From positions 2,145,622 through 2,177,621 of the forward strand of contig CP113000.1 of the NCBI GenBank assembly GCA_026625185.1: 32,000 bases of DNA, given 5' to 3'. Source of the stretch: Thermodesulfobacteriota bacterium. GTDB taxonomy: Bacteria; Desulfobacterota; WTBG01; JAGOGO01. A program made the translations under genes and the position numbers. Under the pieces are notes generated by a model. The model did no database searches, was not told the DNA's origin, and worked only from the letters and a program-made list of their open reading frames with translations. The stretch's first letter is position 1; the number at the start of each line of letters is the position of its first letter. Shown here one piece after another: positions 1,855-31,918 of this stretch.

Positions 1855-3093
1855 TTGAGTGTGAACGGGGTTACAGTAACTACCAGTCGGCGCGCTTTGG
1901 CAGTTTCTCCATCGGTATGGGGAGTTGTAACCATCTGGGTAATATTTCGTGCCTGGACGAGCCTGTGGGCGGCATTGGTCTCTACGTTGCGGCCGCTGAC
2001 GGCGCTTGAACAGTCAGTAGCCTTGTGGCCTCCCAGTGCTCCGTGGGGGTGGTGGCTTCAGCGAGCGCTGCTGGCTCCCTGGGAGCGTTGGGATGGTGCC
2101 TGGTATTTGCGGATCATCACCGAAGGGTATCAATGTGGTAACGGCACTGATGCCTTTCATCCGCTTTATCCCGGGCTGGCATGGCCGCTGACTCGATTGG
2201 GGATTGATCCGCTTCTATCGCTGATGATCGTGGGAAGCCTGGCAACTTTGGCTTTTCTTCTCCTTTTTGAGCGGATGGCTGGATTAGATTCTACGCCTGC
2301 TCAGGCGCAAACCGCTTCTCACTTATTACTGTTTTTCCCGGTGGCTTTCATCTTATTTGCTCCTTATAATGAAGGATTATTTCTCTTGCTGTCGGCGCTA
2401 ACGTTATTATGGGCCAGACAACACCGATGGTGGCGGGCCGGAATTGCCGGAGCGCTGGCGGTATTGACGCGCCCGCAGGGGCTTTTTCTGGTCTTCCCGT
2501 TTGCCTGGGAGTTGTGGGAGGCGCATGAGCGTGATGTGCGCCTTGCCCTGCGGGATTGGCGCTGTTGCTCGGCATTGGGGTTAATTCCGATAGGAATGGG
2601 ACTGTGGGTGTTGTACCGGGCGCTCGTGGTAGGAGGCGCCCAATTGAATTTCAATTCGCCGTATGTTTTGGTGTACTCGATGTTGATTTCTCCGAGCGCG
2701 GGGAAGGTTGGGGCCTCCCATGTCGTCACCTGGCCATGGAATGCGCTGCAATTGGCTCTGGTGCATTTATGGGTTAAGCCTGATTGGGACCTGGCGGTGA
2801 ATGTAATGTTAAGCGCAGCTTTTGTCGGACTGGTGCTGGTAGCCTGGCCGCGTTTGCGCGCATCCTATCGTGTATATGTGCTGGTGATGCTGCTGGTCAG
2901 TTTTAGCTACCATACGGGAACTGGACATCCCTATATGGGGCTGCCACGTCATTTATTCCTGGCCTTCCCGGTTTTCATCGGCCTGGGGAAGATTGGATGG
3001 TGTTCCCGATGTCGTTTATTATGGACCGGGGGCGGCTTTGCAGGCAGTTGCTTTCTGATATTACTTTATGTCTTAAAAGCCTGGGTACCGTGA
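1855..3093 (+). CDS. Polytopic membrane glycosyltransferase, GT-C-like (PIG-V / mannosyltransferase-2 / DUF2029-like)
   Basis: A 412-aa ORF that is very hydrophobic and Trp-rich, with about 10 predicted TM stretches. The periplasmic-loop motif APWERWDGAWYLRIITEGY resembles the W.rWDa.wY..Ia..GY signature of PIG-V-type bacterial mannosyltransferases. The start is non-ATG (TTG 1855 or GTG 1861). The gene is GC-rich relative to its flanks. Confidence 0.55.
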   Translation: MSVNGVTVTTSRRALAVSPSVWGVVTIWVIFRAWTSLWAALVSTLRPLTALEQSVALWPPSAPWGWWLQRALLAPWERWDGAWYLRIITEGYQCGNGTDAFHPLYPGLAWPLTRLGIDPLLSLMIVGSLATLAFLLLFERMAGLDSTPAQAQTASHLLLFFPVAFILFAPYNEGLFLLLSALTLLWARQHRWWRAGIAGALAVLTRPQGLFLVFPFAWELWEAHERDVRLALRDWRCCSALGLIPIGMGLWVLYRALVVGGAQLNFNSPYVLVYSMLISPSAGKVGASHVVTWPWNALQLALVHLWVKPDWDLAVNVMLSAAFVGLVLVAWPRLRASYRVYVLVMLLVSFSYHTGTGHPYMGLPRHLFLAFPVFIGLGKIGWCSRCRLLWTGGGFAGSCFLILLYVLKAWVP

Positions 3094-3094
3094 T

Positions 3095-3907
3095 TTGAAG
3101 TATCTGTTTACACCGAGGGAAAGCTCTCGAAGGGGTGATGGTGTGAGCATTTTACCTAGCGTGGTTGCCGATAACGAGCGCGAAGCGGGCGCAAACGTGC
3201 AAGATTTACAGGTGCTTATTGTAATTCCAGCCTATAATGAGCAAGGGAAAGTGGGTTTGGTTGTTCAAAAGGTTTTAGCCTATGTTACGGATACGGTGCT
3301 GGTGGTGGATGATTGTTCTACGGATCAGACCGCTGTGGAAGCTCAGACTATGGGCGCATTGGTTATCCGCCATGAGCATAATCTTGGGGTCGGCGGCGCA
3401 ATCCGTACCGGCATTGATTATGCGTTAGCGCACGACTTTCAGGTTGTGGCTGTCCTTTCGGGCGATAATCAGCATGACCCCGCAGAATTGCCGGGTTTGT
3501 TGCGCCCCATTCTTGTAGACGGTTATGATTTCGTCCAGGGGTCACGGCGTTTTCAGGGCTTGCAGTCGTCCAACATCAGCTGGTTTCGTCGGTTTTTTAC
3601 CTGGGTTTACGCGGTCACATTTCACTGGTTGACTGGTTTTGCTTGCACGGATGCGACCAACGGCGGGCGGGCATTTCGCACCCGGATTTTTGCGGATGGC
3701 AGGATAAATTTATGGCAAGAGTGGCTGAATTCGTATGAGTTAGAGCCCTACTTATTTTATAAAGTTGTGCGTGAGGGATACAAAGTCACCGAAGCGCCGA
3801 TGAAAGTTATCTATCACACGAGGGGCACAACCAAGATGAAACCGGTGCGCGATTGGTGGCGGATCTTGCGCCCCATGGTTTATCTGACTTTGGGATTGAA
3901 AAACTAA
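3095..3907 (+). CDS. GT2-family glycosyltransferase (polyprenyl-phosphate sugar synthase type, Dpm1/ArnC-like)
   Basis: Motifs are VLIVIPAYNEQGKV, VVDDCSTDQT and the DxD-like SGDNQHDP. Length is about 250-270 aa. The start is uncertain: TTG 3095 sits 1 nt after the upstream stop, with an in-frame GTG alternative at 3143. Confidence 0.75.
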   Translation: MKYLFTPRESSRRGDGVSILPSVVADNEREAGANVQDLQVLIVIPAYNEQGKVGLVVQKVLAYVTDTVLVVDDCSTDQTAVEAQTMGALVIRHEHNLGVGGAIRTGIDYALAHDFQVVAVLSGDNQHDPAELPGLLRPILVDGYDFVQGSRRFQGLQSSNISWFRRFFTWVYAVTFHWLTGFACTDATNGGRAFRTRIFADGRINLWQEWLNSYELEPYLFYKVVREGYKVTEAPMKVIYHTRGTTKMKPVRDWWRILRPMVYLTLGLKN

Positions 3908-3924
3908 GCTGAGGGAGGGCTACT

Positions 3925-4884
3925 ATGGGTCACGATCTAAAAGGTCAAAGGGTATTGGTAACCGGAGGGGCCGGCTTCGTCGGCTCGAACCTGGTTCGCC
4001 GGCTGGTGGCCGAGGGCGCCGAGATCACAATTTTAGACGATTTTTTTACCGGGCGCATGGAAAACTTGCGTGACATTGATACCGCGGACTATCGGTTGGT
4101 GCGGGGCAGTGTCACTGATAGTGGCCTGGTGCGGCAGTTGGTCTCTCAGGTGGAGTGGGTTTTTCACCTGGCGGCGCGGAATATCATTGCGTCCACGCGG
4201 AATCCATACGAGGACTTTCAAACCAACATCGGCGGCACACTTAATATTTTGTTGGCAGCGCGTGATTTTCATCCGCAACGGGTGCTCTATACCTCTTCGG
4301 TTTCAGTCTACGGCAACCCACGATATTTGCCAATCAACGAAGACGACTGCATCAGTTTGTTGACGCCGTATGCTGTCAGCAAATTCAGCGGTGAAGGCTA
4401 TTGCCAGGCGTTTTATGAAAGCTATGGCCTGCCGGTGGTGGTCGTGCGGTATTCTAATGTATACGGGCCCTGGCAAGATCCGCAAAATCCGTATTGCGGG
4501 GTCGTGGCAAAGTTTATGGGAAAGGCACAAAAGGGGCTGCTGCTGGAGATTCATGGCGATGGGGAGCAGACCCGCGATTTTACGTTTATGGAGGATGCAG
4601 TTGAAGCTACTATACTGGCGGCGGTATCCCCAAAGTCTGCGGGGGAAGTCTTCAATATCGGCACCGGGGTGGAGGCTAACGTGAATACGTTAGCCCGGCT
4701 CGTGTCGGATCTATACGGATTGGAGCTGAAGCCGGTATATATTGACCGGCGAGATATAGACAATATCCGGCGCCGCGTGGTGAACATAGAGAAGGTCCGG
4801 CGTATATTGCGCTGGGTGCCGCGCGTGACCTTGGCTGAGGGACTCTTACGCACCAAGCAGTGGTTGCAGGCGGTAGGACCTTAG
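3925..4884 (+). CDS. NAD-dependent epimerase/dehydratase (extended SDR; UDP-sugar 4-epimerase or UDP-GlcA decarboxylase-like)
   Basis: It has the Rossmann motif VLVTGGAGFVGSNL and the catalytic Y..SK (TPYAVSKFSGE). The ORF is 319 aa. An SD (gagggagggc) precedes the ATG. Confidence 0.85.
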   Translation: MGHDLKGQRVLVTGGAGFVGSNLVRRLVAEGAEITILDDFFTGRMENLRDIDTADYRLVRGSVTDSGLVRQLVSQVEWVFHLAARNIIASTRNPYEDFQTNIGGTLNILLAARDFHPQRVLYTSSVSVYGNPRYLPINEDDCISLLTPYAVSKFSGEGYCQAFYESYGLPVVVVRYSNVYGPWQDPQNPYCGVVAKFMGKAQKGLLLEIHGDGEQTRDFTFMEDAVEATILAAVSPKSAGEVFNIGTGVEANVNTLARLVSDLYGLELKPVYIDRRDIDNIRRRVVNIEKVRRILRWVPRVTLAEGLLRTKQWLQAVGP

Positions 4885-5254: not shown

Positions 5255-6904
5255 ATGAAAAATATTTTTTTGGTTTTTGGTTTGTTGTGTTCTATTTTTT
5301 TTGTAAGTTGCGAAGAGCGTTCAAAAGCGCCTGACCAGGGCAAAAAAGAAGCTCAAACGGATAGGGTTGCTCCTCCTGCCTATGGAGATACCATCATTGA
5401 AGGCTCGATTGGCGATGCCAGTAACCTTATCGCCATGCTTGCTTCAGATAGCGCTTCGTTTGATATCGCGGGTCTTTGTTACAATGGTCTGGTCAAGTAT
5501 GATAAAGATCTCAATCTGGTGGGGGATCTGGCCGAGTCATGGGATATCTCTGCGGACAACCTCACCATCTCCTTCCACCTGCGAAAAGGGGTGAAATGGC
5601 AGGATGGGGTAGAATGTACTGCTCATGATGTCATGTTTGGTTATCAGACGATCATCAGCCCCAATACGCCTACCGCTTATGCCGGAGATTTTCAGGAGGT
5701 AGCTAAGGCTGAGGTGATTGACAAGTACACATTCAGGGTAACTTACAAAAAACCTTTTGCCCCTGGTTTAGCCTCCTGGGGTTCCGTGGTGGTTTTGCCG
5801 AAACATATTTTGGAAGGGCAAGACATCACCAAATCTTCGTTAACTAGGGCCCCGATGGGCAATGGCCCTTACAAGCTTAAGGAATGGAAAACCGGGGAAA
5901 AGATTGAGCTGGTCTCCAATCATGATTATTTTGAGGGGCGCCCTTATGTTGATGGGTTTGTTTATAAAATAATTCCGGATACGGCGACGATGTTTCTGGA
6001 ATTGCAGGCCGGTAATATTGACTTTATGGGGCTTTCACCGCTCCAATACCTGCGCCAGACAAAAACAAAAACGTTTCAGGAAAATTTTCGAAAATATAAA
6101 TATTTGTCCTTTACCTATACCTATATGGGTTTTAACCTTTTAAACCCCTTGTTTCAAGACAAGCGGGTTCGTCAGGCGATTTCGTATGCAATTAATAAAA
6201 ATGAAATTCTTGAAGGGGTACTTCTCGGTTTGGGTGAGGTAGCAACCGGTCCGTATAAGCCGGGCACCTGGCAGTATAACCCGGAGGTAAAAGCCTTTCC
6301 TTTTGATCCTGAAAAAGCAAAGGCCTTATTGAAGGAAACAGGATGGGCTGATGCTGATGGGGATGGAATTTTAGAAAAAAACGGCAAGCGTTTTGAATTT
6401 ACGGTCATTCTTAATCAGGGAAACAACGAGCGCCGGAAGACGGGGGAAATTATTCAACGCCGGCTCACGGAAGTCGGGATCAAAATAAAAATACGAACGC
6501 TTGAATGGGCTGCCTTTATTAATGAATACATTGACAAGAAAAATTTTGAAGCTACTATCCTGGGCTGGACTATCGGACAGGATCCCGATGTTTTTGACAT
6601 CTGGCATTCGAGCAAAACTCATTTTAAAGAGCTGAACTTTATATCGTATAAAAACGAAGAAGTAGACCGCCTGATCATGGAGGGCCGCCACACCTTTGAT
6701 CGTGAAAAACGAAAGCAGGCCTACTACCGCATTCAAGAAATATTAGCAGAAGATCAGCCCTATGTGTTTCTTTATGTTCCTTATGCTCTCCCCATTATCC
6801 ATATGCGATTCCGGGGCATTGAGCCTGCAGCGGCAGGGATAACGTATAATTTTACCAAATGGTATGTTACGAAAGCAGAGCAGAAGTATACGATTCAACC
6901 GTGA
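5255..6904 (+). CDS. ABC transporter substrate-binding protein, family 5 (peptide/nickel, OppA/DppA-like), probable lipoprotein
   Basis: A 549-aa ORF with a signal peptide ending FFVSC. Family-5 SBP-like blocks are present (GLVKYD.DLNLVGDLAESW, LRKGVKWQDG, GPYKLKEW..GEKIEL..N..YF). Four cognate ABC genes follow it. Confidence 0.85.
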   Translation: MKNIFLVFGLLCSIFFVSCEERSKAPDQGKKEAQTDRVAPPAYGDTIIEGSIGDASNLIAMLASDSASFDIAGLCYNGLVKYDKDLNLVGDLAESWDISADNLTISFHLRKGVKWQDGVECTAHDVMFGYQTIISPNTPTAYAGDFQEVAKAEVIDKYTFRVTYKKPFAPGLASWGSVVVLPKHILEGQDITKSSLTRAPMGNGPYKLKEWKTGEKIELVSNHDYFEGRPYVDGFVYKIIPDTATMFLELQAGNIDFMGLSPLQYLRQTKTKTFQENFRKYKYLSFTYTYMGFNLLNPLFQDKRVRQAISYAINKNEILEGVLLGLGEVATGPYKPGTWQYNPEVKAFPFDPEKAKALLKETGWADADGDGILEKNGKRFEFTVILNQGNNERRKTGEIIQRRLTEVGIKIKIRTLEWAAFINEYIDKKNFEATILGWTIGQDPDVFDIWHSSKTHFKELNFISYKNEEVDRLIMEGRHTFDREKRKQAYYRIQEILAEDQPYVFLYVPYALPIIHMRFRGIEPAAAGITYNFTKWYVTKAEQKYTIQP

Positions 6905-7161: not shown

Positions 7162-8136
7162 ATGGCAACGTACATCCTGAAAAGACTTTTCGGAATGATC
7201 CCGCTTTTATTCGGGATCACGATTGTTTCCTTTTTAGTCATTCATCTTGCGCCCGGTTCACCCGTGACCATTCAGACCGACCTCAATCCCAAAATGACGG
7301 CTGAGGCCCGCGAGCGGCTTCTTAAGTTTTACGGGTTGGACAAACCCCTTCATGTCCAGTACTATAACTGGGTGAAACACCTGGTCACGTTTGATCTGGG
7401 TCGTTCCTTTGCCACGGATAACCGTCCGGTCATTGATAAAATCAAGGAACGTCTTCCCATCACTATTTTCATAAATGTGCTTTCCTTATTTTTAATTCTT
7501 ATGATTGCTATTCCCCTGGGGATATTATCCGCAGTTTACCAGAACTCTCTTTTTGATCGTTCCACCACCGTCTTTGTGTTTATCGGATTTGCAATTCCTA
7601 CGTTCTGGCTGGCTTTGCTTTTGATGATTCTTTTTGGCATTCAGCTCGACTGGCTTCCCATTTCCGGGCTTAAATCTGTGAACTATGAGTATCTCTCCGC
7701 CTTTAATCAACTGAAAGACCGGGCGGCGCATTTGCTTATGCCGGTGCTTCTTTCCGCTTTTGGCGGATTAGCCGGATTTTCAAGGTATTCACGATCGAAT
7801 ATGCTGGAAATTATCCGCCAGGATTACATTACCACCGCGCGGGCGAAAGGGCTTTCGGAATCACAGGTGATCTACAAGCACGCTCTCCGGAACGCTTTTT
7901 TGCCGATCGTTACTATCCTGGGACTTTCAATTCCCGCTCTTATTGGGGGAAGTGTTATCTTTGAGTCGATCTTTGCCATTCCGGGACTGGGTCAGTTGTT
8001 TTACAATGCGGTCATGGGGCGAGATTACTCCTTGGTCATGGGGGAGCTGGTTATCGGAGCGCTTTTGACTATGCTCGGCAATCTTTTGGCGGATATTTCT
8101 TATGCTTTAGTTGATCCACGGATCAGAATAAAATGA
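7162..8136 (+). CDS. ABC transporter permease (OppB/DppB-like)
   Basis: The N-terminus from ATG 7162 is the typical [34 protein letters not shown]. The EAA-like loop [19 protein letters not shown] is present. The ORF-track start at 7138 is a non-ATG extension. Confidence 0.85.
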
Positions 8137-11933: not shown

Positions 11934-11980
11934 CCCCTCACCCATCCCTCTCCCCAGCGGGGAGAGGGATGGGTGAGGGG
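11934..11980. repeat. Best-preserved copy of the hairpin element: a perfect 22-bp stem with a 3-nt loop
   Basis: CCCCTCACCCATCCCTCTCCCC-agc-GGGGAGAGGGATGGGTGAGGGG, verified base by base. It sits between the convergent small ORF and dsrP. No U-tract follows on either strand. Confidence 0.9.
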
Positions 11981-12043: not shown

Positions 12044-13201
12044 CTAACTCCCGACCTCTTCTTTTATCGAGACCGCAATTTTATAAAGCACGGTAAGGAT
12101 CGAAAAACCTATCGCCCAGATCCCGAGAGTGATCAATACTTCCGGCGCCGTGGGGGTATATTCGGTTATTTCTTCCAAGGGTGAGGGAATAAACCCGGTA
12201 ACGACTAAGCCAAGTCCCTTTTCAATCCACAGTGAAACAAATACCGCCACACAAGCCAGGGCCAGGGTCTTCTCGTTTTTCCGGGTGTTCGGATTAATCA
12301 AAAGAAAGGTCGCGCCTACTGCCAGGATCACAAAAGACCACATCCAGGGGACGAGTTTAGTATGACCGTGAAGACCGAAAAACAGATATTGAAAGTGGCT
12401 CATGTGTTCGGGTATTTGGCTGTAAAATGCGGTGAAAAGCTCCATGAGAACAAAAAAGATACTGATGAGCATCGCATAGGTAACAATCTTAGCTAAGGTC
12501 TGGAAGGCTTCTTTCCCGGGATCAAACTTGGAAAATTTTCTTACGATAAAGCCTAAAAGGATAAGCAGCGCGGGACCGGAAGCAAAGGCTGACGCTAAAA
12601 AACGAGGCGCCATAATCGCGGTGAGCCAGAACCCTCTTCCGGGAAGCCCGGCGTAAATAAAGGCAGTGACGGTATGGATGCTAACCGCCCAGGGAATAGA
12701 AAGATAGATAAGAGGTTTAACCCATTTGGGAGGAGGTACATCCGCCCGTTCCGCTGCAAGCACCGTCCAGCCGATCACGATGTTCAACACTAAATAACCA
12801 TTGAGCACGACCATATCCCAGAACAGGATCGAACTTGGAGTAGGGTAGAGTAAAACATTAAAAGCGCGGTCAGGTCGTCCCAGGTCAGCGATGATGAACG
12901 ATAAACACATCGTGACTGAAGCTACCGCGAGGAATTCACCTAAGATGGTTATCCTTCCAAAGAGCTTATAATGATGGAGATAGTAAGGCAAGACCACCAT
13001 AACCGCGGATGCGGCAACCCCTACCAAAAAAGTAAATTGGGCAATGTAGAGCCCCCAGGATACATCGCGGCTCATGCCGGTTATGCCCAAACCAAAGCTT
13101 AATTGTTTTAAATAACAAAAAAAGCCGACAACAATAATGCCGCCTAAAAGAGATAGTAAAGCCCAATATTTTTTACTTCCGGTTAGTGCTTTTTCTAACA
13201 T
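12044..13201 (-). CDS. dsrP: DsrP, NrfD/PsrC-family integral membrane quinone-interacting subunit
   Basis: The product is about 385 aa with about 10 TM helices (NrfD-like). It is the last gene of a dsrMKJOP-ordered cluster. ATG 13201 (MLEKALTGSKKYW) is preceded by GAGGAG, and the ORF-track N-terminal extension to 13354 overlaps dsrO. Confidence 0.85.
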   Translation of the reverse strand: MLEKALTGSKKYWALLSLLGGIIVVGFFCYLKQLSFGLGITGMSRDVSWGLYIAQFTFLVGVAASAVMVVLPYYLHHYKLFGRITILGEFLAVASVTMCLSFIIADLGRPDRAFNVLLYPTPSSILFWDMVVLNGYLVLNIVIGWTVLAAERADVPPPKWVKPLIYLSIPWAVSIHTVTAFIYAGLPGRGFWLTAIMAPRFLASAFASGPALLILLGFIVRKFSKFDPGKEAFQTLAKIVTYAMLISIFFVLMELFTAFYSQIPEHMSHFQYLFFGLHGHTKLVPWMWSFVILAVGATFLLINPNTRKNEKTLALACVAVFVSLWIEKGLGLVVTGFIPSPLEEITEYTPTAPEVLITLGIWAIGFSILTVLYKIAVSIKEEVGS

Positions 13202-13208
13202 AGTCTCC

Positions 13209-13988
13209 TCACGCGATATAATAAATTTGAGGCATTGTCCCCAGCTGTGGTTTTCGTCGGATGGTATGATGAGCACGGAGAAGCCCCCGCAATTCAGAGT
13301 TTGCGTCTTCCAGATCACCAAAAACCAAAGCCTTTTCTTTGCACGCTTCAACACAAGCAGGGATAAGACCTTTAGCGAGCCTTTCGCTGCAAAAATTACA
13401 TTTTTCTACCACCCCTCTCTCCCGGGTGGGGAATTCTTTATTGATTTCCTTGATGAAGGGTCGGGGGTCCCTCCAGTTCAAGCTTCTTGAACCGTAGGGG
13501 CATCCGGCCATGCAGAAACGACAACCAATGCACCGGTGATAATCCATCATGACAATTCCATCCTCACGCTTCCAGGTAGCTTTGGTGGGACAAACTCTCA
13601 CACACGGCGGATTATCGCAGTGGTTACAGAGCGTAATAAACTGACTTCCCTTCAGAGTCTGATCAATGTATTCCTGCATATACACGGTTTCATCGCCCGG
13701 AAACGCTTTTTCATAAGGTTCTTTCCAGATCCACTTCACCTCATCTTTAGGATTCCCCAAATCAGGGACATTATGGACCTGATGACACGCTTTGAGACAG
13801 TCTTGGCAGTCCTCTTTGCATTTTTTCATGTCAATAATCATGGCCCAGCGTTTTCCGGTTAGGGCGTCCGGACTAGGCAAGATTTTTGGTTCTTCATTGA
13901 CGGCCAAAGCTTTTTGGAGGGGCTTAGAGCCTATTCCTAAAAGAGAAATTCCGGCAACTTTTAAAAACGTTCGTTTACTGTTATCCAT
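13209..13988 (-). CDS. dsrO: DsrO, periplasmic 4x[4Fe-4S] ferredoxin-like subunit with a Tat-type signal
   Basis: The signal is MDNSKRTFLKVAGISLLGIG (KR variant of the RR motif). Cys clusters are CNHCDNPPCVRVCP, CIGCRFCMAGCPYG and CNFCSERL...ACVEAC. Its ATG overlaps the dsrJ stop (TAATG). Confidence 0.85.
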   Translation of the reverse strand: MDNSKRTFLKVAGISLLGIGSKPLQKALAVNEEPKILPSPDALTGKRWAMIIDMKKCKEDCQDCLKACHQVHNVPDLGNPKDEVKWIWKEPYEKAFPGDETVYMQEYIDQTLKGSQFITLCNHCDNPPCVRVCPTKATWKREDGIVMMDYHRCIGCRFCMAGCPYGSRSLNWRDPRPFIKEINKEFPTRERGVVEKCNFCSERLAKGLIPACVEACKEKALVFGDLEDANSELRGLLRAHHTIRRKPQLGTMPQIYYIA

Positions 13989-14371
13989 TAACTTTTCTCC
14001 TCAGGGATAATATGGCAGTTCCAGCAAGTTGGTGTTACGCCAACATAGTTATGGCACTGGTCACAGAATTGCTGTTTATTTGAGTGGCAGTTAAGACAGG
14101 TCTTGGTAAGACTCATCGTATAATTTTTTCCGTCGCTGCCTTTATAGGAATACATCTTTTCTCTCACCACCCTGTCTCTCCACTGGATAAGAAGTTTCAT
14201 GTGCGAGTCTCTCATATAGGGAGTAGCCTCGACACACTGCTTTTCCTTGGTAATGATTTTTGGCTCCGGCTTGGTGGCCGCCTTTCCGGTAAACGCATCA
14301 TACCAGAGGGGAAAGGTTATCAGGCAGAGAAAAACAATAAGTCCGGTTATGATCTTGCCCGTGTCATACAT
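13988..14371 (-). CDS. dsrJ: DsrJ, membrane-anchored periplasmic triheme cytochrome c
   Basis: There are three CxxCH motifs (CLNCH, CDQCH, CWNCH) and a single N-terminal TM helix. ATG 14371 (MYDTGKI) has GGAGG 9 nt upstream, and the ORF-track start at 14404 would overlap dsrK. Confidence 0.85.
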   Translation of the reverse strand: MYDTGKIITGLIVFLCLITFPLWYDAFTGKAATKPEPKIITKEKQCVEATPYMRDSHMKLLIQWRDRVVREKMYSYKGSDGKNYTMSLTKTCLNCHSNKQQFCDQCHNYVGVTPTCWNCHIIPEEKS

Positions 14372-14375
14372 GCGA

Positions 14376-15989
14376 TTATTCCTCCAGTTCTTTAAGCGGT
14401 TCACCCCGCAAATCAGTTTCTCTTTCTTTTTCCCCCTTCAACACTAAAGCATTCGCAACCATTTCGTGTATTCCCGTGACCTGGACCCCGGGAGCCCAAT
14501 AATCACAAAGGGGGACGAGCGTGGCACGGTCAATGGCGCACATGCACGCAAGGCGATTTACCCCATGTTTCTCCTGCACATACTTGACGGCATTGCCTCG
14601 CGGCAGTCCGCCCCGAAGCCGCATTTCCATATTCTCATCATTACCTAAACCAGCACCTCCGGCACAACAGAACGTTTTCTCTTTAATAGTATTTTCCGGC
14701 ATATCATAAAACTCCTTGCAGACATTTCTGATGACATACCGGGGTTCTTCAAAAATCCCCATCGCCCGGGCCGGGTTACAGGAATCATGGAAGGTAACTT
14801 TTAATTTGTCATTTCGGCTAGGGTCGAGTTTTAATTTGTTGTGTTTAATGAGGTCGGCAGTAAATTCCATGATGTGGACCATCTTGGTGGACTTGGCATT
14901 TTCAAATTTGGTTCCGGTGATGGGCGAGACCGGTTCTTGAAGAAAGTCAGCCGGTCCATTCATGGTGTCCATGTATTGATGAATTACCCGCCACATATGA
15001 CCGCATTCTCCGCCCAGGATCCATTTTACTCCCAGCCGCTTAGCTTCAGCGTAAATCTTGGCGTTGAGTCGCTTGATCATCTCGTGAGAGGTAAAAAGCC
15101 CGAAGTTTCCTCCTTCCGAAGCGTAGGTGCTCCAGGTATAGTTAAGCCCAAGTTCGTGGAAAAGAATGAGGTAGCCCATACAAGTAAAGGTTCCGGGATC
15201 GGCAAAATAATCACCCGAAGGAGTGACAAACAAAATATCGGCACCCTTTTTGTTGAGGGGTATTTCCACCCGAACCCCGGTGATGTCTTCAATGTCATCG
15301 GCAAAAAATTCGAGGGTATCTTTTAGGGTATGGGGATAGACACCAAGATGATTTCCGGTCATAAAACACTTTGCCGCCGGTTCGAGAGCCCAGTTAATTC
15401 CTAAACCGAGAAGGTAAAGAAGCTCTCGTCCGATCATGGTGATTTCCGCGGTGTCAATTCCATAGGGGCAAAAGACGGAACAGCGCCGGCATTCGGTGCA
15501 CTGATAGAAATAATAGAACCATTCTTTAATGACGGTGGGAGTTAATTCTCGCCCCCCCGCGAGTTTACCCAAAACCTTTCCCGCAGCAGTGAACTCTTTA
15601 CGGTAAATTGACCGGAGGAGTTCCGCTCTTAAGACCGGCATATTTTTTGGGTCGCCGGAGCCAAGAAAGAAATGGCACTTGTCTGCGCAGGCTCCGCACC
15701 GGACGCAAATGTCCATAAAAACTTTAAAAGACCGGTATTTGCTTAAGCGCTCCGCAATGCCATTTACAACGATTTCTTTCCAGTTTTCCGGCAGCTTCCA
15801 GTCTTCCTCCATAGGCGACCACTCCCTCGGAAAAGGCAACTCAAGAATTTTGTGGTTTTTAGAAGCGGCCGGATAATTATACGTGCCGGGTTTAAAATTT
15901 ACCGGCGTATCCATCCAGCCTTTTCGGGGCGGCTGATAATCAATTTTTAAAAGCTCTTCTGGTTTTGGAACACCATCTAATTCAGACAT
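14376..15989 (-). CDS. dsrK: DsrK, HdrD-like catalytic subunit (2 x [4Fe-4S] plus CCG domains)
   Basis: Motifs are CVRCGACADKCHFF, CTECRRCSVFCPYGID and the CCG-domain cysteines (FHDSCNPAR, CCAGGAG). The product is 537 aa. Confidence 0.9.
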   Translation of the reverse strand: MSELDGVPKPEELLKIDYQPPRKGWMDTPVNFKPGTYNYPAASKNHKILELPFPREWSPMEEDWKLPENWKEIVVNGIAERLSKYRSFKVFMDICVRCGACADKCHFFLGSGDPKNMPVLRAELLRSIYRKEFTAAGKVLGKLAGGRELTPTVIKEWFYYFYQCTECRRCSVFCPYGIDTAEITMIGRELLYLLGLGINWALEPAAKCFMTGNHLGVYPHTLKDTLEFFADDIEDITGVRVEIPLNKKGADILFVTPSGDYFADPGTFTCMGYLILFHELGLNYTWSTYASEGGNFGLFTSHEMIKRLNAKIYAEAKRLGVKWILGGECGHMWRVIHQYMDTMNGPADFLQEPVSPITGTKFENAKSTKMVHIMEFTADLIKHNKLKLDPSRNDKLKVTFHDSCNPARAMGIFEEPRYVIRNVCKEFYDMPENTIKEKTFCCAGGAGLGNDENMEMRLRGGLPRGNAVKYVQEKHGVNRLACMCAIDRATLVPLCDYWAPGVQVTGIHEMVANALVLKGEKERETDLRGEPLKELEE

Positions 15990-15992
15990 TTT

Positions 15993-17012
15993 TTACTCCT
16001 TATCCACCGGGATTTCCGCGGCTTTCATCTTTTCCCTAAATTCATCCTCATATTCCTCGTAAGTATGAACTTTTACGGGATAATTCCAGGGGTTGATGTG
16101 TCTTTTGGACCGGTTGTTATTAGCCAAATTTCTGGTTGGACTTAAGAAGACTCCGCCCAGATGCATCAACTTGCTGAACGGAAAATAGGCAATGAGAAGG
16201 CAAACAAAAAAGAGATGGACATAAAATAGAACGCCGATCCCTTCCGGAAGTGCGGGACGAAAGCTAATGAGGCTTAATGCTAATTCCTTTACCTTGATGA
16301 GGTCAACTTTATAAATGTGGCGCATGAACATCCCCGATCCGATGATGCAAAAGAGAAGAAAAAGCGGGAAATAATCAGCCGGAAGGGAAACATAACGAAT
16401 TTTAGGAACCAAGACGCGTCGAAGAAAAAGATGGGTTATTGCCGCCACAATAAGAGCATCAGTTAAATAAAGCGCGGGAACACCAATTTCAAAAAGATTA
16501 TCTAATTTGTCAATGAATTGTATTGCAAAGGGCACCGGCTCGGTAAAAAATCTAAGGTGACGGGTGAGAATGATAAAAAATGACCAGTGAAATGTTAACC
16601 CAGCCAGCCATAGCCACTTTGCCGACCAATGAATTAACTTGGGCCCTTCATTGAGCTCAGTATTTGTGTTCCGAAAAAGTGAGCGAAAAAGAAGCACTTC
16701 CAGTGCCAGTCTTTTGATGACATCGAGCGTAGTAAAAGGGCTTTCCAGGCGGTTGGCTTTTATCCAGTCGAGAGATTTTTCCTGTCCGCAGACCGTGGTG
16801 ATCCGGAACGGAACCGGAGATTTTGCCCAGCTTAGGATGCGATAAAGAAAACCCATTAAAAATATCGCTAATGCAAGGTAGGGTATAAAAATCCCAAAAA
16901 CATTCTCCAAATGAGTATAGCTGACGACTCCTAACACTAACAATAAAAGGAACAAAATAATAATAAACGGTAACATGATGCTCATAATAAAGGTCATTTT
17001 AATGTGCCTCAC
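15993..17012 (-). CDS. dsrM: DsrM, NarI-like dihaem b membrane subunit
   Basis: The product is about 335 aa with 5-6 TM helices and a NarI/HdrE-like layout, and it sits directly upstream of dsrK. The start is either GTG 17012 (GTGA overlap with the upstream gene) or ATG 16997 (GAGG 9 nt upstream). Confidence 0.8.
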   Translation of the reverse strand: MRHIKMTFIMSIMLPFIIILFLLLLVLGVVSYTHLENVFGIFIPYLALAIFLMGFLYRILSWAKSPVPFRITTVCGQEKSLDWIKANRLESPFTTLDVIKRLALEVLLFRSLFRNTNTELNEGPKLIHWSAKWLWLAGLTFHWSFFIILTRHLRFFTEPVPFAIQFIDKLDNLFEIGVPALYLTDALIVAAITHLFLRRVLVPKIRYVSLPADYFPLFLLFCIIGSGMFMRHIYKVDLIKVKELALSLISFRPALPEGIGVLFYVHLFFVCLLIAYFPFSKLMHLGGVFLSPTRNLANNNRSKRHINPWNYPVKVHTYEEYEDEFREKMKAAEIPVDKE

Positions 17013-17551
17013 TTTTTATATGATTTACTTTTAGTTTTTTCTTCTGGTGTTTTGGGTATACGGTTTAATCTTCTTACCAGACCGGAATACCTGTTTTTTA
17101 CCTCATTGGCCCTCAGTTCAAATACTTTTTCACGACATTCCACATAACGATTGAAAGCCGCCAAGGCGAGTTCATCAATTTTAGACTCAAAGGTCAAAAA
17201 CTCATCGAACAATTCTTTTTCTTTAAACTCTTTTTTTAATTCATCTCTAATCACCTTTTTGAGCATAAAGATGAAGGAAAGCGCCTGGGCAGGGGTGAAT
17301 TCTTGGACCGCTCGAATATGGATAATGCGATCCAAAAAGGAGGAAATTTGTTTATGATTACCTTCCTTAATAAGTCCATCAAACAAATCCTCTATTCCCT
17401 TAAAAATAGTTGCGCCAACCGGATTTGCAAAAGGATCATTTTCATTCTTTAAAAATGTGGCGGTTTCTTCCGGATAGGTTCGCAGAACAAGGTGAAACCA
17501 TTTTTTTACCAGAGCTGGTTTGTGTTGGGATAAAATTTCCTCGAATTTCAT
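17009..17551 (-). CDS. RsbRD_N-like domain protein (function unknown), first gene of the dsr operon
   Basis: A 180-aa soluble helical protein. Blocks LVKKWFHLVLRTYPEETATFLKNENDPFANPVG and RIIHIRAVQEFTPAQALSFIF match my recollection of the RsbRD N-terminal domain family. Its stop overlaps the dsrM start. Confidence 0.55.
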   Translation of the reverse strand: MKFEEILSQHKPALVKKWFHLVLRTYPEETATFLKNENDPFANPVGATIFKGIEDLFDGLIKEGNHKQISSFLDRIIHIRAVQEFTPAQALSFIFMLKKVIRDELKKEFKEKELFDEFLTFESKIDELALAAFNRYVECREKVFELRANEVKNRYSGLVRRLNRIPKTPEEKTKSKSYKK

Positions 17552-18066
17552 TGCTCATGTTCCTTGGCCGTAATGTAAAAAACGGAGAAAACGAAAAAAC
17601 CCCCTTACATTTTTTTAAAAAAAAGATTAATCAATTCGGCACTATATGCCATGAATTTTAGCATTAAAAAATGATTATTGTCAGTTGATACTCTGTTTTT
17701 TGTCAGAAACGGTAGCCTTTTCTGTAAATGATTATTAATTTTTATCCCGTTAGAAAGGCCCCGCTTGTCCTAAGTATCAAACAGGGCTAGAGAAACGCGA
17801 GGTAAAATTAAAGATGGCTACGCTTTTTCACAAGGGAGGTAAATCCATGAGAAAATTTTCTAAGGGGATTTTCCTTGCGTCTTATATATTTACCGGACAA
17901 GAGATTAAAAAGAAACATAATAAAATTTTTAGACTATTTATTGGTTACTGATTTTATGACAATTATCATTAAAAAAGAGGTGTTGTAAATTGTGTTTTTC
18001 TTCCCCCCTCTTCATCAAAAATTATGGTCATTAGGTTATGGTCTTTACTTCATTCACTTCCTTTGG

Positions 18067-18097
18067 CTATACATTTAATGTATAGGCCTTATACATT
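18067..18097. promoter_or_regulatory. Candidate enhancer (UAS): perfect palindrome CTATACATT-T-AATGTATAG plus a third TATACATT half-site
   Basis: The palindrome spans 18067-18085 and was verified. The extra half-site is at 18090-18097. The palindrome centre lies about 118 bp upstream of the -24 GG of the sigma-54 promoter. Confidence 0.5.
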
Positions 18098-18162
18098 GAT
18101 TGGATAGTAAACCTCCTTTCTCCCCTTTCCATTGATAAGGTTTATCCTATAAAAATTAGATT

Positions 18163-18175
18163 AATCAATCGGTTA
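18163..18175 (+). promoter_or_regulatory. IHF-consensus site (WATCAANNNNTTR) between the palindrome and the sigma-54 promoter
   Basis: AATCAA-TCGG-TTA matches every position of the E. coli IHF consensus. The flanks are AT-rich. Confidence 0.5.
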
Positions 18176-18192
18176 TCAAAATTTAAAACATC

Positions 18193-18208
18193 TGGCACGG
18201 GCATTGCG
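18193..18208 (+). promoter_or_regulatory. Sigma-54 (RpoN) -24/-12 promoter
   Basis: TGGCAC-GGGCA-TTGC-G has GG at 18194-95 and GC at 18206-07, which is exactly GG-N10-GC. It matches the consensus TGGCAC-N5-TTGCW in all core positions. It lies 72 nt upstream of the 18280 ATG. Confidence 0.8.
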
Positions 18209-18279
18209 TTTCTCAGTCGTTGGATATTTCAGATTAAGAAGAATTATCCGAAACTTTCCGGACGAAAGAGGGTGAAAAA

Positions 18280-18858
18280 ATGTCGGGGTTAATAAAAATG
18301 AAAATTAAAATGGCGTTTATTCTCTGCTTGGCCGCAGGCACCCTCACTGGCTGTGCTCTATTATTACCGATAATACCACCAACTTGGCCAATATTACTTA
18401 GTCGTGCTATAGACGAAACGACCAGAAAAGATGTTTTTCAGTCACCGGCTGCTAAAGCTCTGGAACCTTCTGAGCGGTCCGTAATGGAGCAACCCGACTT
18501 GAACCTGTGGCTGTGGCCTTATCGTACCACCGTCCGACTTGAGGATGCGGACTGCAAGTCCGATGATAAGTGGTACCAGATGTCGCCGTCTGAAACTGAA
18601 AGTGCTCGTATCGAAGTCGCTCCGGGGGAGCATCGCTTCTTCTTCGATGGTGGGTCATACCGGGGGCGGTGTTACTTCATGCTCTCGATGCTGCAGGGAC
18701 ATGTCTACAAGGTAAAAGGGTTAATCAAGGAGGAATTTTTAGACGGCATACCCGTAACCGAATGTTGGGATTGTCGGCATTGCGGCTGTCCTCTCGAAGT
18801 GATAGATACCGCCCCCGATGGTAACCGCTTGACGGCCAAGGTTTATTGTGGCGGATAG
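18280..18858 (+). CDS. Hypothetical lipoprotein with a Cys-rich C-terminus
   Basis: The lipobox is canonical (LAAGTLTG-C). An SD (agagggtga) precedes the ATG. The ORF is 192 aa. The C-terminal segment is ECWDCRHCGCPLEV...VYCGG. Sampled 60-nt lines at 18481 and 18601 are about 60% GC, above the window norm. No family was recognised with confidence. Confidence 0.6.
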   Translation: MSGLIKMKIKMAFILCLAAGTLTGCALLLPIIPPTWPILLSRAIDETTRKDVFQSPAAKALEPSERSVMEQPDLNLWLWPYRTTVRLEDADCKSDDKWYQMSPSETESARIEVAPGEHRFFFDGGSYRGRCYFMLSMLQGHVYKVKGLIKEEFLDGIPVTECWDCRHCGCPLEVIDTAPDGNRLTAKVYCGG

Positions 18859-18971: not shown

Positions 18972-19745
18972 ATGATTCGTGGATTGACTTTGACGCTTGT
19001 ATTTCTGTTGATATGCGGTTGTGCCTGTCTCATATCAAACACTCCTTATGTGGTCGAACTTAAGGTGCTACCCCAAGTCAAATTTTCATCTCAGCATCCT
19101 CCAAACGTTCGTGTGCGTCCTGCAAGTTCAGAGGAAGCTAAAATTATTACGCAGCTCCCGGGCAAAAGGGGATCTAAATTATTATCCTAGACCGATTTGG
19201 TTCTCAGTTTGTCCCTGGTTACTGTCACATCCTATGGTTTGTTGCCTTTGATTGGGGTTCTGGAATACCAGGGAAGAAATGAAACTGGGATTAAGAGAGC
19301 CTTTGAAGAATTCCCATCCCGATTGCGGGAGGCTATTGAACAACGCTTCTCCGTTTCTTCATCAGGGGAATCATCGGACCTTCTGGAGGTCGTTTACGTT
19401 GCCGGCCTTTCTGACTTTTGGGCCCCATTACTTTGCGGACCACATTCTGCACAAAGGCAAAACGAAAACTGTTTTGTAATGCACGCTCAGGTAACGCTCC
19501 AGTCCCAAGGAGAAGAAGTGTTCCGGGATATCATACACATTGACCCTCGGGCCTACAATGCTGATGTTTGGAGGCCCACCCCTAACGAATCCCCGTTTGG
19601 AATACTTAACTATGCCAATGAGGTTATTCCTAAAATGATTGAGACCCGCCTTCCGGGACTACCGTGGAATTCAAAGGAACTGAAAGAAAGGGATGAACTT
19701 CCTGACGGAAAAACATCCGGAGGGAGTAATGGAGAAAGCTTATAA
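18972..19745 (+). pseudogene. Hypothetical lipoprotein-like gene split by an in-frame TAG (19188-19190). The ORF track shows it as 72-aa and 182-aa pieces.
   Basis: ORFs 18972-19190 and 19197-19745 are in the same frame (both coordinates are 0 mod 3). The sequence reads ...LPGKRGSKLLS-TAG-TDLVLSLSLVTVTSYGLLPLIG.... The second piece would need a TTG start with no SD. The first piece has AAGGAGA as SD and a signal/lipobox-like N-terminus (LLICGC). Confidence 0.5.
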
Positions 19746-30553: not shown

Positions 30554-31918
30554 TTACCCTAATTCATATTTTTTTATTTTAGCATAGAGAGTCTTTCGGT
30601 CAATACCGAGTAAGGATGCAGCATTTCCCTTATGGCCTTTGGTTTCGTTAAGCACCATCATGATGTGGTGTTTTTCTATCGCTTCGAGATGATAATCATT
30701 CTGGGAGATAGGCAAAAATCTGGGAGTTCGTTTGGCTTTTATCCCGGGAAAGTTTCGGGGGAATAAGGTAGCTCCATCCTCCAAAATAAGTGCTCTTTCA
30801 ATAGCGTTTTCCAGTTCGCGAGCATTACCCGGCCAGTCATAATACATCAAAAGCTGGATCGTCTCAGGTGCGACCTGAGTAACCGGAATCTTCCGTTTTT
30901 TATTATACTTTTGCAAGAAATGGTTTACTAACAAAGGGATATCTTCTTTTCTTTCCCTTAACGGGGGAATATGGATGGGAAAAACATTGAGGCGATAATA
31001 AAGGTCCTCACGAAAAGTTTTTCGGGCAATGGCCTGTTTGAGGTCCTGATTGGTAGCAGCAATGATCCGGACATCTACTCTGAGGGTTTTTTCGCTTCCC
31101 ACGGGTTTCACTTCTTTCTCTTGTATCACCCGGAGTAGTTTCGCTTGGGTATCAAGGCTAAGATTTCCAATTTCATCAAAAAAAAATGTCCCGCCGTTTG
31201 CTAACTCAAAACTGCCATATTTGGTCTGAATCGCGCCGGTGAAAGAGCCTTTGACATGGCCGAAAAGTTCGCTTTCCAATAAAGTTTCAACGAGGGCGGA
31301 ACAGTCCACGGTGATGAATTCCTTGTCTTGCCTTAAACTATACGTATGGACTGCTCGAGCAATAAGTTCTTTACCGGTGCCGCTTTCACCGGTAACTAAG
31401 ACGGTACTGTCGGTGGGAGCAGTCCTCCGGACCAGTTCATAGATGTTCCTCATCACTTCACTCTGACCAACAATTACGTCCGCTTCATTTTTTGCTTTTA
31501 ATTGCCGGCGGAGTTGAAGATTTTCAGTTAGAAGGCTTTTTCTTTCTAATGCGCGGTTAATGGCTACCCGGAGGACATTAGGAGTAAAAGGCTTGGTGAT
31601 GTAATCATAAGCGCCCAGTTTTATTGCCTTTACGGCAGAATCAATTGAGGGGTACCCGGTTACGATTAAAATCGTTATTGCTGAATCCATTTCTTTGAGG
31701 CGTCTCAGCGTCTCAATGCCGCCGATGCCCGGCATTTTTATGTCGAGCAGGACAATATCGAAAGATTCACGGTCAAACTTTTCAATTGCTTCCTCTCCCG
31801 AAGAAGCAGTTTGGACTTCATACCCTTCTTTGGTTAAAATGCGGGAAAGGCTGTCCTGCATGATCTTTTCGTCATCAACAACCAGGACTTGAATAGTATC
31901 TTCTGAATTTTGTTTCAC
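30554..31918 (-). CDS. Sigma-54-dependent response regulator (NtrC/AtoC class): REC, AAA+ and Fis-type HTH
   Basis: The REC domain is VLVVDDEKIM...VLLDIKMPGIGG...KPF. The AAA+ domain has GESGTGKE, ESELFGHVKGSFTGA (a GAFTGA-loop variant), GGTFFFDEIG and RIIAATN. The HTH is AASLLGIDRKTLYAKIKKY. Confidence 0.9.
   Translation of the reverse strand: MKQNSEDTIQVLVVDDEKIMQDSLSRILTKEGYEVQTASSGEEAIEKFDRESFDIVLLDIKMPGIGGIETLRRLKEMDSAITILIVTGYPSIDSAVKAIKLGAYDYITKPFTPNVLRVAINRALERKSLLTENLQLRRQLKAKNEADVIVGQSEVMRNIYELVRRTAPTDSTVLVTGESGTGKELIARAVHTYSLRQDKEFITVDCSALVETLLESELFGHVKGSFTGAIQTKYGSFELANGGTFFFDEIGNLSLDTQAKLLRVIQEKEVKPVGSEKTLRVDVRIIAATNQDLKQAIARKTFREDLYYRLNVFPIHIPPLRERKEDIPLLVNHFLQKYNKKRKIPVTQVAPETIQLLMYYDWPGNARELENAIERALILEDGATLFPRNFPGIKAKRTPRFLPISQNDYHLEAIEKHHIMMVLNETKGHKGNAASLLGIDRKTLYAKIKKYELG

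Follow-up and report, generated by a model that had tools for sequence, protein, structure and literature searches.

The window analyzed here, a 32-kb stretch of the closed genome CP113000.1, belongs to ORM2a, a member of the Desulfobacterota (GTDB BSN033; UBA8473). ORM2a is the uncultured key benzene fermenter of the long-studied methanogenic OR/DGG-B consortium and lives in obligate syntrophy with methanogens. Our subject is the segment 18067-18207 of this window, a predicted sigma-54 promoter, together with the small lipoprotein genes that it precedes. To the left of the promoter, on the minus strand, lie a gene with an RsbRD_N domain and dsrMKJOP (12044-17551; dsrM is OS130_10275), with a 728-bp intergenic region common to the dsr operon and the lipoprotein unit. 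To the right are three small plus-strand genes encoding products of 192, 72 and 165-182 amino acids (aa), followed by a convergent string of minus-strand genes for a REC-PAS histidine kinase, a single-domain response regulator, metF/metV, mvhD, an hdrA-like protein, hdrB, hdrC, a second methylenetetrahydrofolate reductase, a response regulator and an NtrC-type regulator (30554-31918). A search against Rfam found no family match anywhere in the window. The features on which the argument turns are, in order along the window:

18067-18085, plus strand: dyad 1, a putative activator site, which is a perfect 19-nt palindrome (CTATACATT-T-AATGTATAG) with the core CTATACA-N5-TGTATAG
18089-18107, plus strand: dyad 2, a second putative activator site, imperfect (TTATACA-TTGAT-TGGATAG), with 2 mismatches to the dyad core
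18108-18162, plus strand: pyrimidine-rich spacer between the dyads and the box that follows, divergent in sequence and fixed in length
18163-18175, plus strand: predicted bending site of the integration host factor (IHF) type, AATCAATCGGTTA, which agrees fully with the consensus WATCAANNNNTTR and has its centre at about -50
18193-18207, plus strand: sigma-54 -24/-12 element TGGCACGGGCATTGC (TGGCACG-GGCA-TTGC)
18218-18221, plus strand: predicted transcription start, placed 11-14 nt beyond the C that ends the -12 GC
18220-18279, plus strand: 5' leader, conserved and about 60 nt long, which contains GAGGGTG as ribosome-binding site and may form a stem-loop at 18220-18251
18280-18858, plus strand: first gene, a 192-aa predicted lipoprotein with a signal peptide, the lipobox LTGC and a cysteine-rich C-terminal part
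18972-19190, plus strand: second gene, a 72-aa predicted lipoprotein (…FLLICGC…)
19197-19745, plus strand: third gene, 165-182 aa depending on the start codon, of no known family
30554-31918, minus strand: NtrC-type enhancer-binding protein (EBP) with REC, AAA+ (with GSFTGA) and HTH_8 domains and a complete Sigma54_activat domain

Taken as a unit, 18067-18207 is very probably an activator-dependent sigma-54 promoter with dyads for an EBP and a site for IHF, and one copy of a repeated module. The initial annotation had proposed much the same, namely a sigma-54 promoter with a palindromic activator site and an intervening IHF site in front of uncharacterised lipoprotein genes, and the conservation, recurrence and rigid spacing described below support this reading of the sequence. 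The -24/-12 element carries GG at -25/-24 and GC at -13/-12 and is followed by a G at 18208; the exact GG-N10-GC spacing previously assigned to 18193-18208 is indeed present. The element follows the consensus with its 10-nt GG-GC spacing, is conserved, and is intergenic, on the same strand as the gene and close to it, with the -12 GC sitting 72 nt before the ATG at 18280 (47-73 nt in the seven module copies that directly precede genes). An exact TGGCAC-N5-TTGC occurs once in the window vs. 0.04 times expected, and any match at all appeared in 4 of 100 shuffled sequences. Transcription from sigma-54 promoters usually begins at this distance (11-14 nt) from the -12 GC; positions of the elements were computed relative to a predicted start at about 18219.

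Upstream of this element, the perfect 19-nt palindrome claimed for 18067-18085 was found there, with its centre at about -143. The claim of an additional third half-site fared differently: the half-site TATACATT is present at 18090-18097, but it is really the left half of the second, imperfect dyad, and the putative upstream activating sequence (UAS) is made up of two dyads rather than one and a half. The centre of dyad 2 lies at about -121, 22 bp or two helical turns from that of dyad 1. Dyad-symmetric sites some 80-150 bp upstream of the -24 region are what one expects of an EBP UAS, and the dyads at -143 and -121 are sites of this kind. Allowing up to 3 mismatches, CTATACA-N5-TGTATAG has 2 matches in the window, adjacent to each other, vs. 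0.68 expected. We also noticed a direct repeat, TTATGGTC, at 18022-18029 and 18036-18043, whose two units, 14 bp apart, closely precede dyad 1. The L008/L010 loci introduced below keep this repeat in part (TTATGCTC…TTGTGGCC), whereas the L009/L019 subfamily does not have it; it may represent either another protein site or mere chance.

The box AATCAATCGGTTA at 18163-18175 matches the full IHF consensus, in agreement with the initial annotation, and is preceded by the A/T-rich tract ATAAAAATTAGATT, so that both the consensus and the adjoining tract of an IHF site are found. One match to WATCAANNNNTTR in the window vs. 2.27 expected is unremarkable by itself; this sole match falls within the interval of about 85 bp between the dyads and the -24 element. 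Nor are perfect palindromes with arms of 9 nt rare in the window. Recognizing that neither the IHF match nor such a palindrome is rare by itself, we consider that the case rests on the combination of the elements, on their geometry and, above all, on their conservation.

To evaluate conservation, we compared 8 copies of the module, including the window, for counts and spacing. Five loci identical to the window (L001-L005) were excluded as evidence of conservation, whereas L006 and L009 are informative, diverged orthologous loci which, together with the window, make up a three-way alignment. L019 comes from an ORM2a-type genome, carrying OS130_04775 and the exact ORM2a acyltransferase WAC08503.1. 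The copies outside the window are as follows:

L006, ortholog with 51% protein identity: dyad 1 CTATACATAAATTGTATAG, dyad 2 almost unchanged; IHF box AATCAATTGGTTA; -24/-12 element CTGCACGGCCATTGC
L009, ortholog with 52% protein identity: dyad 1 CTATACAAATTTTGTATAG, a perfect palindrome; IHF box AATCAATGAGTTA; -24/-12 element TGGCACGCCAATTGC
L008/L010, before a gene for a 448-aa lipoprotein: dyad 1 the same as that of the window, second dyad CCATACATGGTTTGAATAG; IHF box with 1 mismatch; -24/-12 element TGGCACGCCAATTGC
L019a, about 2531-2670, before a B12-radical-SAM/alpha-beta-hydrolase/ceramidase operon: right half-site TGTATAA only; IHF box with 1 mismatch; exact TGGCACGGTCATTGC
L019b, 5830-5970: full module, with a lipoprotein array (467, 228, 466, 131 and 444 aa) behind a ceramidase gene
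L019c, 17964-18104: full module, with a relic open reading frame (ORF) of 17 codons (MFRLKKGCHINMVSSSF) at 71 nt and then an operon about 480 nt downstream

Palindrome, IHF box and -24/-12 element are all kept in the diverged orthologs L006 and L009, as an assignment of function would predict of related genomes, with changes falling at non-consensus positions except for CTGCAC in L006. In the dyad, the pattern of change is telling: the three-way alignment has invariant arms (14/14) and no invariant inner base (0/5) between flanks that vary, and among the 8 copies the core of dyad 1 is invariant in 7 and its right half TGTATA in all, with the inner 5 bases varying; in L009 and L019b the inner changes are symmetric and keep a perfect 19-nt palindrome. 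Dyad 2 is kept at 18 of 19 positions in L006. In the IHF box, 11 of 13 core positions are invariant in the three-way alignment, the L006 and L009 boxes differing at N positions only, and across the 8 copies T3, C4, A5, T11, T12 and A13 never change, with the N4 stretch taking seven forms (TCGG, TTGG, TGAG, TAAG, TTAG, AGGA and ATTG). In the -24/-12 element, GCAC and ATTGC are invariant in 8/8 copies and TGG in 7/8; three of the four spacer bases vary and the remaining one is A in every copy. The variation seen in the three-way alignment is likewise mostly in this spacer, the exception being CTG for TGG in L006.

The distances between the elements are as constrained as the elements themselves. 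The stretch from dyad to TGGCAC measures 106-107 nt in 8/8 copies, in spite of a spacer whose sequence has drifted to 23 of 52 identical positions between window and L009 (aligned over 18108-18159; about 44% between subfamilies), and the end of the IHF box is exactly 19 nt from GCAC in all 8. A fixed helical phase is thus retained, and such rigid spacing despite sequence drift is what a looping mechanism predicts. Taking these observations together, the sequence-level features of a sigma-54 promoter, an EBP enhancer and an IHF site are all found at 18067-18207.

The whole module recurs, with the same spacing, at three further ORM2a promoters and at one in a relative, and every copy is oriented towards its downstream gene; scanning all fetched DNA (about 190 kb) with the module profile found no further copies. 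The ORM2a genome has the module in near-identical form at four sites or more, in front of orphan lipoprotein arrays and of lipid-modifying and lipid-biosynthesis operons. The operon behind L019c, which this copy may still drive, is a lipid-biosynthesis operon of 10 genes, among them those for a PlsC-like acyltransferase, a PEP-utilising enzyme, a methyltransferase, a lipid kinase, a CDP-diglyceride-synthase-like protein, a reductase, a radical-SAM-SPASM protein and a CDP-alcohol phosphatidyltransferase. As the module is repeated across these loci, it would define a regulon, and we surmise from the genes involved that its most likely role is to remodel the cell envelope when a single signal is received.

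The gene products behind the module fit a surface theme. That the gene at ATG 18280 encodes an uncharacterised lipoprotein, as first proposed, agrees with its signal peptide and lipobox (MKIKMAFILCLAAGTLTG followed by C), the Cys of which is kept in most family members that have the N-terminus, and with the result that Pfam and NCBIfam, even at permissive thresholds, gave no match for the 192-, 72- or 182-aa products or for the other module-driven lipoproteins. GenBank annotates only the C-terminal 92 aa of the ORM2a counterpart, OS130_10285 (WAC06638.1); the full-length ORF of 192 aa starts behind a ribosome-binding site and encodes a signal peptide with a lipobox, is predicted by other gene callers and is conserved in relatives, and we have corrected the annotation of OS130_10285 from 92 to 192 aa accordingly. 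The family is tiny: 5.8 billion proteins yielded 4 homologs and 1.84 billion yielded 15 cluster representatives, and a protein-pattern scan of a collection of species-representative genomes, in which the lineage is not represented, had no match. AlphaFold models the 192-aa protein as a beta-sandwich with conserved cysteines (predicted local distance difference test score 77), for which Foldseek against PDB returned no match at E <= 0.001, all TM-scores being below 0.25. In a distant, GC-rich member of the lipoprotein family, aGGCACG-N4-aTGCa lies 130 nt before the start codon. Signs of decay were seen among copies of the 192-aa gene: those in L009 (2022-2438) and L011 (3-263) stop after 138 codons, with loss of the cysteine-rich C-terminus.

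The 113-nt gap before the second gene contains neither a -24/-12 element nor a terminator that we could find, and the 72-aa gene is probably co-transcribed with the first; the third gene probably ends the unit because the next gene is convergent. Nearly all products of module-driven genes begin with a signal peptide followed by a lipobox-like G/A/S-Cys, and mature proteins that are unrelated to each other have a common leader and the signal peptide MSGLIK…CLAA. Likewise, the signal peptide of the 72-aa protein is 78% identical to that of the 131-aa protein of L019. The relative L010 has another five small lipoprotein genes in a row (2200-4451), with products that include ones of 264, 164, 173 and 164 aa; the 164-, 173- and 164-aa products are mutual paralogs, one having a faint BamE-like match (E = 0.19).

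The leader between promoter and first gene is unusually conserved, with 41 of 60 positions invariant in three orthologs whose proteins are about 50% identical, and a similar leader is found behind the L019 modules before unrelated genes (L019 5971-6034 and 18105-18176). RNAalifold predicted a stem at 18220-18251 without compensatory changes, for which reason we do not claim it as a structure. The conservation of the leader may reflect stability, control of translation or mere co-duplication.

From the sequence we infer that sigma-54, IHF and an EBP bind here, where transcription starts, that the three genes are co-transcribed and that there is a role in the envelope, and we postulate the following order of events: 1) sigma-54 RNA polymerase would bind TGGCACG-N4-TTGC (18193-18207) as a closed complex; 2) an NtrC-type EBP would occupy the strong dyad (about -143) and the weaker dyad (about -121, 22 bp downstream), both of which would lie on the same face of the helix, favoring assembly of the active oligomer; 3) IHF bound at AATCAATCGGTTA (about -50) would bend the DNA such that the activator contacts the polymerase, with ATP hydrolysis by the activator driving formation of the open complex; 4) transcription would then proceed from near 18219 through the leader (about 60 nt) into the 192-aa gene and probably onward into the two small genes that follow.

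The arrangement has a close precedent in the same phylum. In the experimentally characterized orp promoters of Desulfovibrio vulgaris Hildenborough, the palindromic EBP sites are at -131/-88, the IHF sites at -42/-43 and the sigma-54 boxes at -13/-11 (PMC3897727); activity of these promoters drops 10-12-fold without IHF, and IHF is functional at D. vulgaris sigma-54 promoters (PMC3897727; PMC8359166). Like orp1/orp2, which use sigma-54, OrpR/DVU2106 and IHF, the predicted promoter described here is found in a Desulfobacterota host and has a three-part layout, with the dyads at -143/-121, the IHF site at -50 and the -24/-12 element. Unlike orp, it has a different dyad sequence and different target genes; in addition, the orp activator is encoded in the locus and two divergent promoters share its sites, whereas here there is no adjacent activator and the module is unidirectional and dispersed over several loci. 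No motif of the TATACA type appears in the text of the paper on the D. vulgaris sigma-54 regulome.

The comparison extends to other activator-dependent promoters. NtrC enhancers of the glnAp2 type combine two adjacent dyads, one around -140 and one around -108, with about two to three helical turns between them, and the two neighbouring dyads found here upstream of -24/-12 lie at similar distances; a strong site followed by a weaker one would fit cooperative assembly of an oligomer. The NtrC site is TGCACCA-N3-TGGTGCA vs. CTATACA-N5-TGTATAG here, glnAp2 works without IHF whereas the IHF box is conserved here, and the targets of the module are unrelated to nitrogen assimilation. Pu/XylR and nifH/NifA are classical IHF-assisted sigma-54 promoters with strict helical phasing, and they likewise place an IHF site matching WATCAANNNNTTR between the UAS and -24/-12; their activators and UAS motifs are others (NifA recognizes TGT-N10-ACA), with the activators encoded near or with the targets, unlike the situation here. 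In the PEP-CTERM-box regulon (PrsK/PrsR), a dedicated sigma-54 activator is thought to control lineage-specific paralogous exported proteins, which have a common sorting signal and a conserved upstream DNA box, features with parallels in the present module. In contrast to that regulon, the targets here are lipoproteins with N-terminal lipoboxes, and the likeness is one of logic and not of membership. The novelty lies in the operator sequence, the regulon and the organism; the mechanism itself is textbook, with nothing added to the biology of sigma-54.

Several observations weigh against the promoter-and-regulon reading or parts of it. Dyad 2 is poorly kept in half of the copies, L009, L019b and L019c having partial versions in which chiefly the right half TGAAYA is left, and the copy before the radical-SAM operon (L019a) has a half-site only. 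In the L006 ortholog, CTGCAC replaces TGGCAC and breaks the near-invariant GG; in this locus (147-161; 235-759) the broken -24 GG is accompanied by a change of the lipobox Cys to Trp, which is why the gene in L006 may be decaying. The copies all stem from a single narrow lineage and part of their similarity therefore reflects recent duplication and not independent constraint. A composite scan for dyad plus -24/-12 in 185,579 species-representative genomes, where this lineage is not represented, found none, and a regulon of broader taxonomic range did not emerge. The envelope-remodelling role is drawn solely from annotations of neighbouring genes, and the main text and part of the supplements of the ORM2a proteomics paper mention neither these genes nor sigma-54 or promoters.

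Among the alternatives, the first retains the same promoter and concerns the identity of the activator, for which the initial annotation had put forward the regulator at 30554-31918; phosphorylated by a neighbouring kinase, this response regulator would bind the CTATACA-N5-TGTATAG dyads. An NtrC-class EBP is indeed encoded there, about 12 kb off, its REC, AAA+ (with GSFTGA) and HTH_8 domains being confirmed, and it is a complete EBP within the same 32-kb window. The earlier statement that the 306-bp gap beside it holds no sigma-54 promoter also stands, since no -24/-12 element was found there or in the intergenic gaps of the hdr/metF cluster; a target for this EBP is not evident locally, and the window has no exact sigma-54 match other than the promoter at 18193. 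As a promoter for the hdr/metF cluster or beside the EBP, the best candidate was TGGTATGATTTTTGG, which we rejected as it is without the -12 GC.

Nonetheless, the regulator at 30554-31918 is an unlikely activator of these promoters. It lies 12.3 kb from the promoter with ten unrelated genes between, and it is the second gene of its own PAS-kinase/regulator pair, the PAS histidine kinase being directly upstream. Beyond the right end of the window (L015 1-10000) there is an insertion sequence (IS; rve integrase) and, about 4 kb beyond the regulator, a second and equally plausible kinase-EBP pair. The search for regulators covered the window with 10 kb on each side and 20-30 kb around the other module copies: no dyad was found near either regulator or in the 10-kb extensions, and no EBP gene was found around the other three ORM2a copies. 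These copies are about 1,100 locus tags off (OS130_04775/04785 vs. OS130_10285), so that a 12-kb proximity to one of four promoters is weak evidence. Further sigma-54-dependent regulators or EBPs are listed in the ORM2a annotation, e.g. OS130_01675. The window EBP scored 419.2 bits against NCBIfam TIGR02915, below the cut-off of 502.6, and is therefore not PrsR; it is also below the NCBIfam cut-offs for AtoC, ZraR, NtrC and all other equivalogs. A complete Sigma54_activat EBP with GSFTGA and a second such regulator nearby do indicate, indirectly, that the organism very probably uses sigma-54. Two other features of L015 deserve mention, namely a 1265-aa Fer2/Pyr_redox/molybdopterin fusion protein and a near-consensus TGGCAGGATCATTGC (7492-7506), located 575 nt upstream of the first kinase gene.

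A second alternative is that the repeated unit of 165 bp is a selfish or passively duplicated repeat, either like a miniature inverted-repeat transposable element or a segmental duplication of the heads of lipoprotein genes, whose resemblance to protein-binding sites is without function. The module is multi-copy and confined to one lineage, its copies have flanks, leader and even signal-peptide codons in common, and there are mobile elements about: L019c (17964-18220; identical in L020 9381-9640) is flanked upstream by transposase-like fragments and followed at first by only the 17-codon relic ORF, and an IS replaces the lipoprotein array in a related strain. Against this, all copies have the same orientation relative to the downstream gene, neither terminal inverted repeats nor target-site duplications are evident, and conservation is concentrated on the consensus bases of three known protein-binding motifs, whereas the spacers between them are about 44% identical yet keep their exact length. 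In addition, the inner bases of dyad 1 change symmetrically so as to preserve the palindrome. Duplication accounts for the origin of the copies but not for this pattern of constraint, and we regard a functionless repeat as very improbable.

A third alternative, in which the palindrome is a repressor site, or an operator through which a conventional regulator acts on the RsbRD_N-dsrMKJOP operon running the other way (17551 leftwards), and happens to lie upstream of a sigma-54-like sequence, can draw on the shared 728-bp intergenic region and on sigma-70-like minus-strand promoters at 17655-17684 and 17962-17989, but it is hardly credible with the dyad 516 bp from the RsbRD_N start codon vs. 107 nt from the -24 element and with L009, L008, L010 and L019 having the dyad with the sigma-54 element and no dsr gene nearby. 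In L009 the upstream neighbour is a gene for a ceramidase-family membrane protein and not the dsr operon, which argues that the elements belong to the lipoprotein gene and not to dsr. None of the other dsr loci has the dyad, and its association with the -24/-12 element is constant.

Some neighbouring features were noted in passing. The RsbRD_N-domain protein (17009-17551, minus strand; 180 aa) is encoded immediately upstream of dsrM and overlaps it, and apparently heads the dsrMKJOP operon. In the dsr/lipoprotein intergenic region, a 34-codon ORF, MRKFSKGIFLASYIFTGQEIKKKHNKIFRLFIGY (17847-17951, plus strand), with the strong ribosome-binding site AAGGGAGG, is predicted by one public gene caller only. 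A very long perfect hairpin with 22-nt arms (CCCCTCACCCATCCCTCTCCCC…) at 11934-11980, between convergent genes and adjoining dsrP, is probably a terminator, as is a second long perfect hairpin with 19-nt arms at 1730-1768, intergenic at the end of a gene.

Returning to the sigma-54 module and its genes, we noticed that the orthologous slot behind the ceramidase gene holds a gene of the 192-aa family in L009 and a 467-aa gene in L019, with the same module in front. The array behind the ceramidase gene in L019 (5776-11830) is absent from a related strain (L020 1600-3200), where a DDE_3/HTH IS element stands in its place, implying that the lipoprotein loci are variable within the ORM2 population. 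We speculate, as a rather doubtful extension, that promoter, leader and signal-peptide codons make up a portable expression head that has been recombined before different lipoprotein bodies. The slot swap between L009 and L019, the common leader and signal peptide, the replacement of the array by an IS, and the relic and decaying copies would all fit such a head. If this were true, the ORM2 lineage would have a variable, sigma-54-gated repertoire of surface lipoproteins, co-regulated with remodelling of membrane lipids, which could matter for its obligate syntrophic life with methanogens.

With its strict spacings of 107 nt and 19 nt, the module offers a clean natural example of geometric constraint in looping-dependent activation. 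For ORM2a, it gives a concrete predicted regulon of at least four promoters with one recognisable operator, CTATACA-N5-TGTATAG. This regulon would tie orphan lipoproteins to lipid-modifying and lipid-biosynthesis operons, and points to a coordinated response of the cell envelope.

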